This document shows positions 36,001 through 39,000 of a stretch of 64,000 bases of DNA, piece after piece; the stretch's first letter is position 1, and each line of letters starts with the position of its first letter. The position numbers were made by a program. Source of the stretch: an uncultured Chlamydiae bacterium (GTDB lineage: Bacteria; Chlamydiota; Chlamydiia; Chlamydiales; SM23-39); the NCBI GenBank assembly GCA_903893545.1, contig CAITMJ010000010.1:29602-93601 (forward strand), given 5' to 3'.

Positions 36001-39000
36001 TAAAGCCAACGGACTTCATTGTCCTCATCCCCTCCTTTATCACAAGCCAGCTCAAAAGCGCTTTTGAAATTGGCGTTCTCATCTACTTGCCATTTTTTGT
36101 GATCGACCTCGTGGTCTCCAACATCTTGCTTGCGATGGGGATGATGATGCTCTCGCCACTGACCATTGCGCTTCCGATCAAGCTCCTCCTCATCGTGATG
36201 ATTGACGGATGGACTGTGCTCGTGCAAGGCTTAGCAATGACATTTAGGTAACTTCCATGTATGCAAATGAAATTTACCAACTCTCCTACCAAGCCCTCAT
36301 CCTGATCCTTCTTCTTTCAGGGCCCCCAATCATCATCAGCATGATTCTCGGACTTCTTGTCGCAATTTTCCAGGCAGCGACCCAAATCCAAGAGCAGACC
36401 CTTTCCTTTACCGTGAAACTATTTGCGACCATTTTTACCATCATCTTCCTCGGCGGATGGCTGGGCGGCGAGGTGATGGCCTTTACGAATACGATCTTCA
36501 ACAATATTTCCAAAATGGCTCCATGACCCCGTCTTCGCCTACGGATAATTATGCGAGTTTTCTCATCTCTCTTCCTACATTAGAAATCACAACCCTCGCG
36601 TCGGTGTTTTTTCTGACATTAGCGCGCCTCTTGCCGATCGTAACGATCGTCCCATTCCTCGGCGCTAAAAACTTGCCGATGAGAATTCGGATGATGTTTG
36701 CTCTCGCTCTTGTCGCTATCTTTTTGCCGCAAAATCTTTTAAACGTAACCAAATCGATCCCTTATGGGATGATGTGGGTCGGCCTTATGTGTAAAGAACT
36801 TCTCGTGGGCGCTGTCATTGGCATTTTAGCGACAGGCCCTTTTTACATCGCCCAAATGGCAGGCTCCCTTATCGACCACTCGCGAGGATCGTCCTCCCTA
36901 CAAGTCAACGACCCGACGACACAAAGCCAAACAGGCCCTGTTGGCCTCCTTATGAACTACATTCTCATCGTCCTCTTTTTCCAACTCAACGGCCCCTTTA
37001 TTTTTATCGATGGCCTGGCGACCTCGTATCAAATAATCCCCGTTGAGAAAATGTTCAATCCTGCCTTTTTTAACCTCCAAGATCCCTTCTGGAAGATGGC
37101 CGTCTCATTCGGCAATCACATGATGACCCTTTGCGTGCAACTAGCCGCCCCCGCTCTCATCGGCATCCTCCTAACCGACTTTTTCTTAGGCATAGCCAAT
37201 CGCCTCGCCCCACAAGTGCAGATCGTCTTCCTCGGAGTTTCCTTAAAATCCTGGGTAGGCATTGCCCTTCTCGCCGCCTCCTGGTTTCTCGTCATTCAAG
37301 TCATGGGCAAAGAAGCCATAGCCTGGACAAAATCCCTCGTCCGCATGATCGAGAGGATAGGGTTTTTCGTACAATAAAAAGGGATTCCCCTAGACATATC
37401 GGCTGCCCCAAACGCTTCGCGTCCTGGGTCAGAACCTTACAGTTTCTCTCCACAAATTATGAGTTCTGGGACACGACGCGAAAGGAACCAGCCAGAGTAA
37501 AATAAGAGGAATCTGCCCCAAATGCTTCGCGTCCTGGGTTAGAACCTACAGTTTCTCTCCACAAATTATGAGTTCTGGGACACGACGCGAAAGGGACCCG
37601 CGAGGGATCGAGTGGGATGAGCGCATGGACCAGCCAGACGCCCCAAATGCTTCGCGTCCTGGGTTAGAACCTACAGTTTCTCTCCACAAATTATGAGTTC
37701 TGGGACACACAGTTTCTCTCTACAAATTATGAGTTCTGGGACACGACGCGAAAGGGACCCGCGAGGGATCGAGTGGGATGAGCGCATGGACCAGCCAGAC
37801 GCCGCTACGGCAAAGCATAAATCGTAGCGCAGGAGCGCGAAGCGCCCTAGGGGGGCTGTGTTGCACACGCCCCCTAAGCGAGCACACGATTTTGCAAAGT
37901 CGTAGTTAGGCGCAAAGGGGCTAGCGGGGGATGGTGGGGACCCCATCCCCGACATGTCTATAAGGAATCCTATTTATTCATATTGATCCTACGACTATCA
38001 TCCCCGACGTGGCTATAAGGAATCCTATTTATTCATAAGGAATCCTATTTATTCATATTGATCCTACGACTATCATCAATACTGATGAAACAACTACATA
38101 CAGACTCTGGCGCGCCATTCTTTTTGGGGGAAGACCTCTTCAACGAGATGATTGCTTTTTGTGAGAAGTTGGGGTCAAAAACTGTGGTGATTTGTGAAGA
38201 AGGTGTGGAAAAGATCGGGAAAAAGTTGGGGCTCGATCTATTGACTTTCCCTGGGGGAGAAGTTTCTAAAACAAGAGAGATGAAAGCGCTTTTGGAAGAT
38301 GAACTGCTTACTCGCAATGTAGGGCGCGATACGGTGATTGTCGCCCTTGGCGGCGGCGTAACGCTCGATCTTGTCGGCTTTCTCGCCTCGACTTATTTAC
38401 GCGGGGTACCTCTTGTATTGGCCCCAACGACTCTTCTTGCAATCGTCGATGCCAGTTTAGGGAATAAAACGGGTGTCAACACCCCACAGGGGAAAAATCT
38501 CATCGGATCGTTTTATTCGCCAAAAGCGATTTTTGCAGACCTAAACACATTGCAAACACTGCCGAAAAAAGAATGGCTAAACGGCCTTGCAGAAATTTGG
38601 AAAGCAGGACTCATCGCCGATCCAGCTCTTTTGAAGGAAGAAGTGCACACGGCCATTGAAAAAGCGATCCGCGTAAAAATCAAGATCCTCGCAAAAGATC
38701 CCACCGAACAAGGGATGCGGAGGATTTTAAATTTTGGACACACCATCGGCCATGCCATCGAGAAGGTCGCTGAATACACCATCGCGCATGGAGAAGCGGT
38801 CGCTCTCGGAACTGTTGTAGAGAGTTACTTGAGCTACAAACTAGGCCACCTCTCCAAAAAAGAGTTCGGAATCATCCAAAAGCATTATGAAACGGCTGGA
38901 TTTTCCCTTGAGCTGCCCCCTAACTATCGCCGAAAAGATCTCCTTGCAGCGATGAATTTGGATAAGAAAAAAGCGGGCAAAGACGTCCGCTTTGTCCTCA

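Follow-up and report, generated by a model that had tools for sequence, protein, structure and literature searches.

A repeat-rich, structured non-coding spacer between sctT and aroB of an uncultured Chlamydiota, probably expanded in place

The question at the sctT-aroB junction

What occupies the 707 bp between sctT, a gene of the type III secretion system (T3SS) export gate, and aroB, the first gene of aroBAK, in an uncultured Chlamydiota? This gap lies at positions 37378-38084 of the 64-kb stretch of DNA analyzed here (the window, to which all coordinates refer unless a related locus is named). An initial annotation made from the sequence had described it as a non-coding composite repeat bounded by inverted repeats, and every element that it described was found in its place. 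The gap is best read as a lineage-specific, non-coding and highly structured spacer that was expanded in place by tandem duplication at an unstable sctRST/aroBAK junction, a reading to which a probability of somewhat over one half (about 0.55) is assigned. It is a real and fast-evolving spacer of a familiar general kind. An origin from a BOX-like or miniature inverted-repeat transposable element (MITE)-like sequence is possible; present mobility or function would be hypothetical.

Tandem modules and AT-rich units

The gap and its left edge contain the following parts.

37373-37402, no strand assigned: left inverted-repeat arm, AATAAAAAGGGATTCCCCTAGACATATCGG, overlapping the last codon and the stop codon of sctT
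37406-37514, + strand: module 1, the putative oldest copy, with a hairpin at 37416-37482 and the core at 37439-37474
37515-37639, + strand: module 2 (125 bp), with a 66-nt hairpin at 37526-37591 and the core at 37548-37583
37640-37800, + strand: module 3 (161 bp), equal to module 2 plus a tandem core duplication (37673-37708 and 37709-37744, one mismatch)
37801-37912, + strand: GC-rich branched (Y-shaped) structure of 112 nt, closed by GCCGCTACGGC and GTCGTAGTTAGGC
37913-37946, + strand: tail of the GC-rich segment, in which the hairpin GGGGATGG...CCATCCCC (37927-37950) begins
37947-38001, + strand: AT-rich unit 1 (55 bp), whose head (37949-37978) is the right inverted-repeat arm
38002-38077, + strand: AT-rich unit 2 (75 bp, that is 55 bp plus a 20-nt duplication), with two substitutions in the head; absent from the same-strain contig L002

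The 36-nt core had been described as occurring four times, twice directly adjacent, and pattern search recovered exactly this arrangement. The copies at 37439, 37548 and 37673 are exact and the one at 37709 carries a single mismatch; shuffles of the window contained none. The last two copies adjoin and form a tandem repeat with a 36-nt period and a 97% match. Module starts are spaced by 109 and 125 nt, and module 3 reaches 161 nt because the core is duplicated within it.

Divergence between the copies is graded. If the extra core is disregarded, modules 2 and 3 share 99-100% identity (0-1 substitutions), whereas modules 1 and 2 differ by several substitutions as well as insertions and deletions. 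Module 1 lacks 31 nt that are present in modules 2 and 3, a difference bordered by GGACC direct repeats, as had been noted and as can be read in the sequence, and it ends in a private 18-nt tail, GTAAAATAAGAGGAATCT. The 55-bp AT-rich unit is present twice, at 37947 and 38002, as described; the second copy additionally contains an exact (100%) 20-nt tandem duplication (38015 and 38035) that had been missed. The two AT-rich units differ by two substitutions, both in the inverted-repeat head. Microhomologies can be read by sequence at the duplication boundaries: the 125-bp module has GCC at its ends, the 20-nt duplication has ATA and the 55-bp unit has CAT.

As far as the sequence can tell, such graded divergence is the signature of repeated slippage or unequal recombination, the latest events of which would be very recent. 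The suggestion that slippage or recombination is ongoing fits the near-identity of modules 2 and 3, the nested duplications that are exact or have one mismatch, and the 3-nt microhomologies. As to present variation, one same-strain assembly has a single AT-rich unit against two in the window, which may be a variant or a collapse.

Under the favored reading, most of the present length would have arisen by local tandem duplication, through replication slippage or through unequal recombination between short direct repeats, and at least five duplication events can be read. The first and oldest would be the split between modules 1 and 2; the second, the duplication of module 2 into module 3; the third, that of the 36-nt core inside module 3. 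The 55-bp AT-rich unit would have been duplicated in a fourth event and 20 nt inside its second copy in a fifth. An additional event, either a deletion or an insertion of 31 nt, would have taken place between the GGACC repeats.

A long inverted repeat brackets the modules

Without gaps, the two inverted-repeat arms (37373-37402 and 37949-37978) agree at 22 of 30 positions; with two gaps, they agree at about 25 of 31 (counted by eye). None of 300 dinucleotide-preserving shuffles of the region reached 22/30 (mean 18.3, maximum 21). The terminal inverted repeat that had been proposed is thus beyond chance, and at 30 nt it is longer than was stated; the layout of inverted repeats enclosing tandem internal modules is real and statistically supported. 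The right arm is not strictly terminal, since 107 bp of related repeat follow it before aroB. The flanks read ...TTTTTCGTAC / inverted repeat ... inverted repeat / CATATTGATC, and no direct repeat of 2 nt or longer that could represent a target-site duplication was found at the three plausible boundaries. A displaced CAATA at both gene edges is the sole sequence that the flanks share.

Intact flanking genes and coding capacity of the gap

The gap is flanked on its 5' side by sctR, sctS and sctT (FliP, Bac_export_3 and Bac_export_1) and on its 3' side by aroB, aroA and aroK. The two genes that border it are as follows.

36523-37377, + strand: sctT (T3SS export-gate component, 284 aa; Pfam Bac_export_1, E = 1.2e-53), with its TAA stop codon at 37375-37377
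38085-39107, + strand: aroB (3-dehydroquinate synthase, 340 aa; Pfam DHQ_synthase and DHQS_C), followed by aroA and aroK

The sctT start at 36523 yields a protein identical to one on record, and in alignments its C-terminus and its end at 37377 are in line with those of relatives. The ATG of aroB at 38085 is the same start that is used in seven homologues. Identical entries for AroB (38085-39107) exist in NCBI, Logan and ENA; its next relatives have 65% and 61% identity, and the named matches at about 50% identity come from metagenome-assembled genomes of Chlamydiales, Parachlamydiales and Waddliaceae. Both SctT and AroB have normal ends in homologue alignments; the event at the junction left both genes intact.

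The gap itself, as had been stated, has no credible open reading frame (ORF); the longest is 94 aa, on the minus strand and crossing the repeats. Its six-frame translation (a 1435-residue concatenation) had no match at E <= 1e-3 among 5.8 billion predicted proteins, a weak test in that the locus's own 94-aa ORF was not returned either. This absence of protein matches argues against a decayed gene and, more weakly, against many copies that would attract spurious gene calls.

The junction in related genomes

The sctT-aroB junction was compared with that of the two next relatives, L006 (GCA_964522685.1; AroB 65% identical to that of the window) and L007 (61%). These two are sisters (SctT 85%, AroB 70% identity) and the window is their outgroup. 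In L006, sctT and aroB overlap by 4 nt (GTGA). In L007, the junction measures 711 bp and contains a 155-aa ORF on the minus strand. This ORF (positions 1237-1704 of the L007 locus) belongs to no Pfam family, and terminator-like hairpins stand on either side of it, TCTTTTTCGC...GCGAAAAAGA and TGCCGCT...GCGGCA. Farther relatives have aroDE in place of sctT upstream of aroB. Judged from these sequences, the sctT/aroB junction is specific to this small clade and appears plastic, being different in all three members, and in L007 and the window the same junction is filled independently with different content.

The near-equal length of the L007 gap, together with its ORF, raises the question of whether the spacer could be the decayed remnant of a gene that once stood between sctT and aroB. 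The best local DNA alignment of the two gaps is 30 nt long and surrounds a GCGCGAAGCGC hairpin that both carry downstream of sctT in one orientation; this similarity is marginal, its score being reached in 6 of 300 shuffles. It would be in keeping with a common remnant, but the similar stretch sits outside the L007 ORF, and tblastn of that ORF against the window finds nothing in the gap. Moreover, the six frames have no relative among the 5.8 billion proteins, and none of the repeat periods (125, 55 and 20 nt) is divisible by three. Hardly any credence is given to this explanation.

Folding of the spacer

Parts of the spacer are predicted to fold tightly on both strands. The module hairpin is an imperfect 66-nt structure, and the 8-bp outer stem that had been described around the core, TTCGCGTC...GACGCGAA, lies within arms that are 80% complementary over 20 nt. 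Folded singly, as the initial annotation had proposed, the hairpin reaches -21.6 kcal/mol (z = -3.0) on the plus strand and -23.6 kcal/mol (z = -3.4) on the minus strand. Between modules 1 and 2 it differs by a single base, a C-to-T change that turns a G-C pair into a G-U pair.

The GC-rich segment had been characterized as packed with short hairpins, and a search for inverted pairs bears this out. Within the branched structure, the inner hairpins are GCGCGAAGCGC and TAGGGGGG...CCCCCTA, and the fold of 37801-37912 has -54.6 kcal/mol, with z = -5.0 on the plus strand and -3.8 on the minus strand. In the first part of the tail (37913-37934), the sequence that follows the hairpin in modules 2 and 3 recurs as a diverged copy (73% over 22 nt), and by this resemblance the GC-rich segment stands where a fourth module would be.

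The whole gap folds at -246.8 kcal/mol, compared with -217.8 kcal/mol in shuffles (z = -3.9, from 20 shuffles only). In the minimum-energy and centroid structures alike, the inverted-repeat arms pair with each other as the closing stem. The idea of a large structured RNA locus thus draws its support from thermodynamics, and no Rfam family matches it.

Searches for further copies

A second copy of the spacer was sought at several levels. Within the window, none was found by pattern search, short-word BLAST, nhmmer or an unfiltered covariance model of the hairpin. Each part of the gap was also compared by nhmmer with the masked window and nine related loci, and no other copy, intact or diverged, was detected. 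Exact-pattern scans for the core gave no match in the GTDB representative genomes (185,579 species, a set that does not include the window's species), the JGI metagenomes or IMG/VR; similar scans gave none for the AT-rich unit in the JGI metagenomes and IMG/VR, and none for the GC-rich hairpin in IMG/VR. BLASTN of the gap in distant mode found nothing among PLSDB plasmids and INPHARED phages. No Rfam family reached its gathering score anywhere in the window, and at E <= 10 the gap produced three chance-level matches of 13-17 bits. No tRNA or tmRNA was found. The search for the units in related DNA that had been suggested earlier was therefore negative in the window, the nine loci and the public collections, and within all data searched the gap is a single-locus sequence.

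The sole non-local match of the hairpin covariance model was at 27084-27164 (16.8 bits, E = 0.03), where the sequence is unrelated to the sctT-aroB modules. It falls within a set of nested long inverted repeats (27030-27196) in a gap of about 135 bp between divergent ORFs (25910-27037 on the minus strand, and from 27173 onward on the plus strand). The arms of one pair, 47 nt each, are 87% complementary with 73 nt between them; those of the other, 37 nt each, are 84% complementary with 5 nt between them. These palindromes could be an operator or a bidirectional regulatory palindrome.

The searches bear directly on the MITE-like nature that the initial annotation had considered. Its inverted repeats, small size, lack of coding and strong pairing stand; a target-site duplication and a second copy were not found. 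A copy of a non-autonomous mobile family, either a MITE or a BOX-like modular repeat mobilized by a transposase encoded elsewhere in the genome, is accordingly held to be unlikely, while deserving serious consideration. The 30-nt terminal inverted repeat beyond chance, the missing coding capacity and the tight folding would all be expected of such a copy, and the internal modules fold apart from the end stem, as boxB does in BOX elements (PMC3049150). The tail of module 1 carries a weak extra copy of GGAATC, so that 37373-37514 could be a minimal element of about 140 bp, and the L006 junction is empty. That empty-site relative is distant, however (AroB 65%), and its sister L007 is filled differently. 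No target-site duplication stands beside the inverted repeat, the right arm is followed by the 107 bp of related repeat rather than being terminal, and neither an intact nor a diverged second copy occurs in the 64 kb or the public collections scanned. Finally, no transposase was found among the 17 of the window's approximately 60 ORFs of at least 150 aa that were scanned against Pfam.

Support from independent assemblies

Other assemblies of the same strain confirm most of the spacer. They cover 37378-37467 and 37721-38084 at 100% identity, save for one 75-bp unit that is missing in L002, and the middle (37468-37720), which sets the number of 125-bp modules, is supported by the window's own assembly alone. 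The Logan contig L010 (ERR10509554) extends from the sct genes as far as 37467, where the last module 1-specific 31-mer lies, and L001 begins at 38048, the first 31-mer specific to the last AT-rich unit. These two contig ends appear to match the de Bruijn graph branches that the repeat structure of the window predicts. The ENA contig L002 (ERZ27280210) covers 37721-38002 and then joins 38035 onward, with one AT-rich unit and 75 bp fewer; this difference, seen in one short-read contig, either is genuine variation in copy number or comes from a collapse during assembly.

A further same-strain scaffold of 884 bp, L011 (ENA ERZ18663679), ends at window position 37388, 11 nt past the sctT stop codon, at GGGATTCC. 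This end precedes all of the tandem repeats and lies in the left inverted-repeat arm; it may be due to low coverage, or else to a structural variant at the left edge.

It is very improbable that the architecture is partly an assembly artefact, with wrong copy numbers or a wrong join through the repeats in the window contig. The same-strain short-read assemblies do all break within the repeats, one of them has a single AT-rich unit where the window has two, and no independent contig covers 37468-37720. The adjacency of sctT and aroB, however, recurs in two related genomes. Independent assemblies match the window at 100% identity over the GC-rich segment, at the two edges of the gap and where it meets sctT and aroB, and the positions at which the Logan contigs end are compatible with two or more AT-rich units and several cores.

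Transcription signals and a possible role in the mRNA

Between 36800 and 38600, neither a sigma-70-type consensus promoter nor a plus-strand intrinsic terminator was found, although this consensus covers chlamydial promoters only partly. Each AT-rich unit carries a weak TTTATT-17 nt-TATCAT, seen by eye. A promoter or terminator of the gap's own was considered and set aside, there being no consensus promoter and no plus-strand terminator. The gap had been said to supply the whole 5' region of aroB: this holds by position, and no sigma-70 consensus promoter lies within it.

With no consensus promoter found in the gap and with sctT and aroB overlapping in L006, read-through is at least as likely as a promoter in the gap. 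Because the genes overlap, aroB of L006 must be expressed from the sct transcript. These observations, along with the missing plus-strand terminator, suggest that the spacer is probably transcribed within a read-through sctRST-aroBAK mRNA. In such an mRNA, the inverted-repeat arms would close a domain of about 600 nt made of independently folding hairpins. This domain would break the stop-start translational coupling of sctT and aroB of the kind seen in L006. It could also act as a barrier to 3' exonucleases or as a site of endonuclease cleavage, and the two gene sets might then be present at different mRNA levels. In other bacteria, palindromes of this intercistronic kind are known to stop exonucleases, to recruit RNase III or RNase E, or to cause attenuation (PMC3049150).

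Could the spacer then be a functional RNA, either a cis-acting leader or intercistronic domain of aroBAK (RNase III might, for instance, cut it out at the long-range stem) or a set of tandem small-RNA genes? The strong z-scores of the folds (whole gap, -3.9; 112-nt structure, which is more stable on the plus than on the minus strand, -5.0), the closing stem that brackets the domain, and the G-C to G-U change that keeps the hairpin between paralogous modules are all consistent with this. Yet the two strands of the hairpins are about equally stable when folded, which is what DNA palindromes would show, and the modules have neither a promoter consensus nor U-tract terminators. There is no Rfam family even at E <= 10 and, among the collections searched, no homologue for a covariation test. 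Since the sequence is missing from the closest relatives, any function would be very young. GGA motifs are not enriched after repeat redundancy is removed. Taken together, this evidence makes a functional RNA a rather improbable account. A protein sponge of the CsrB/RsmZ kind was rejected, as neither GGA nor ANGGA motifs are enriched once the duplicated modules are removed.

Weighing the favored reading

Besides the partial reach of the promoter consensus, several points weigh against a spacer that merely grew in place. The search of its own genome was confined to the 64-kb window, and dispersed copies may exist elsewhere in that genome. One copy in 64 kb excludes only very abundant families: with the genome size taken as about 2 Mb, we estimate that a family exceeding about 100 copies would be seen with approximately 95% probability. 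The marginal similarity to the L007 gap is a hint, and only a hint, that part of the spacer may be ancestral, and since the window is the outgroup to L006 and L007, parsimony cannot separate insertion of the spacer from its inheritance. The proposed effects on transcription, processing and expression are read from sequence and folding models.

The 30-nt inverted repeat, which beats every shuffle, is not the product of simple slippage, and this suggests an element-like or rearrangement origin. The seed of the spacer would thus be a small, palindromic element bounded by inverted repeats that landed at the junction, or a scar created when aroB moved beside sctT; the local duplications of the favored reading would have enlarged it afterwards.

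Significance

If the favored reading is right, a translationally coupled operon junction of a chlamydia has been opened by self-amplifying palindromic DNA with both genes left intact. This would also account for the short-read assembly breaks at the gap, and the spacer would offer a fast-evolving marker for strain typing. The locus would be more important if the modules proved to be dispersed, in which case they would represent a new MITE family in Chlamydiota. To our knowledge, few MITE families have been described in that phylum. It would likewise gain importance if the folded domain controlled the relative expression of secretion and shikimate-pathway genes. The boldest proposal, that the gap is the first visible copy of an undescribed BOX-like family of Chlamydiota, or an RNA domain of about 600 nt, with a long-range closing stem and cut out of the sctRST-aroBAK transcript, that couples or uncouples expression of the T3SS export gate and aromatic amino-acid synthesis, is considered a long shot.

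Other features of the window

Directly downstream of aroK, an 822-aa ORF without a Pfam match (40820-43288, minus strand) is followed by a 358-aa leucine-rich-repeat protein (43413-44489, plus strand); the two are candidate eukaryote-interacting effectors beside the T3SS/aro cluster. At 8000-16000, GC content falls from about 0.48 to 0.39-0.41. The ORFs there encode glycosyltransferases (families 25, 92 and 2), an FkbM methyltransferase and a DUF1796 papain-like peptidase, and the segment looks like a glycan or lipopolysaccharide-modification island, possibly foreign. An ORF of more than 2121 aa (57635-64000, minus strand) runs past the end of the window and contains diverged internal repeats 291, 579, 582 and 1164 nt apart. 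It is presumably a repetitive surface or effector protein.

Comparison with known systems

Two unrelated kinds of locus were considered and rejected. A clustered regularly interspaced short palindromic repeat (CRISPR) array or remnant, in which identical repeats would alternate regularly with unique spacers, usually close to cas genes, does not fit core spacings of 109, 125 and 36 nt, inter-core sequence that is itself repeated, or T3SS and aro genes as neighbors. A replication origin, expected to show clustered DnaA boxes where the GC skew turns and usually close to dnaA or dnaN, is not indicated either: there is no GC-skew inflection at 37-38 kb, and the DnaA-box-like sites are degenerate, with one mismatch; three of the four such sites in the gap are copies of one repeated 20-mer.

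Repetitive extragenic palindromes (REPs) are 20-40 bp long, with 5-13-bp stems and a GTAG or CGTC tag, and occur in 20 to thousands of copies (PMC3733652). Like the REPs and the bacterial interspersed mosaic elements (BIMEs), the gap holds extragenic palindromes able to stabilize or attenuate operon mRNAs; its stem contains CGTC and its GC-rich part GTAG. By the published criteria (PMC3733652), assignment to REP/BIME was rejected, given hairpins of 66 and 112 nt at one locus only.

The MITE families known from host-associated or intracellular bacteria, such as Correia/NEMIS (Neisseria miniature insertion sequences), enterobacterial repetitive intergenic consensus (ERIC) sequences and the Rickettsia palindromic elements, resemble the gap in being small, non-coding and palindromic and in lying at gene ends or within operons while ORFs stay intact. 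Transcribed families serve as targets of RNase III or RNase E, as attenuators or as promoters (PMC3049150). They differ in that their copies, which are 100-170 bp long and have defined ends, are dispersed and number from tens to hundreds, whereas the gap is a single 707-bp locus in which local tandem amplification predominates.

Variable-number tandem repeats (VNTRs), the minisatellites used in multiple-locus VNTR analysis (MLVA), share with the gap intergenic head-to-tail repeats some tens of nucleotides long, near-identical copies, nested duplications and a possible difference in copy number within a strain. Ordinary VNTRs have one unit type and no flanking inverted repeats, whereas in the gap two arrays unrelated to each other occur together with a unique segment of structured sequence, and there is an inverted repeat that brackets the locus.

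BOX elements of Streptococcus pneumoniae and S. suis have a modular boxA-boxB(n)-boxC organization of 67-637 bp and are often co-transcribed as untranslated extensions of operons (PMC3049150). They occur in more than 100 copies per genome, with terminal inverted repeats, target-site duplications and conserved box sequences, whereas the gap is one known locus. The size of the gap was noted as within the reported range (707 bp against 67-637 bp). A boxB is about 45 bp long, and the internal modules of the gap, at 125 bp, are larger. The hosts are a streptococcus and a chlamydia, respectively, and the likeness is one of architecture only. In that respect, BOX elements are the nearest known counterpart of the gap: a non-coding composite that lies beside or inside operons, whose end modules pair with each other and whose internal modules, tandemly repeated a varying number of times, each fold independently.

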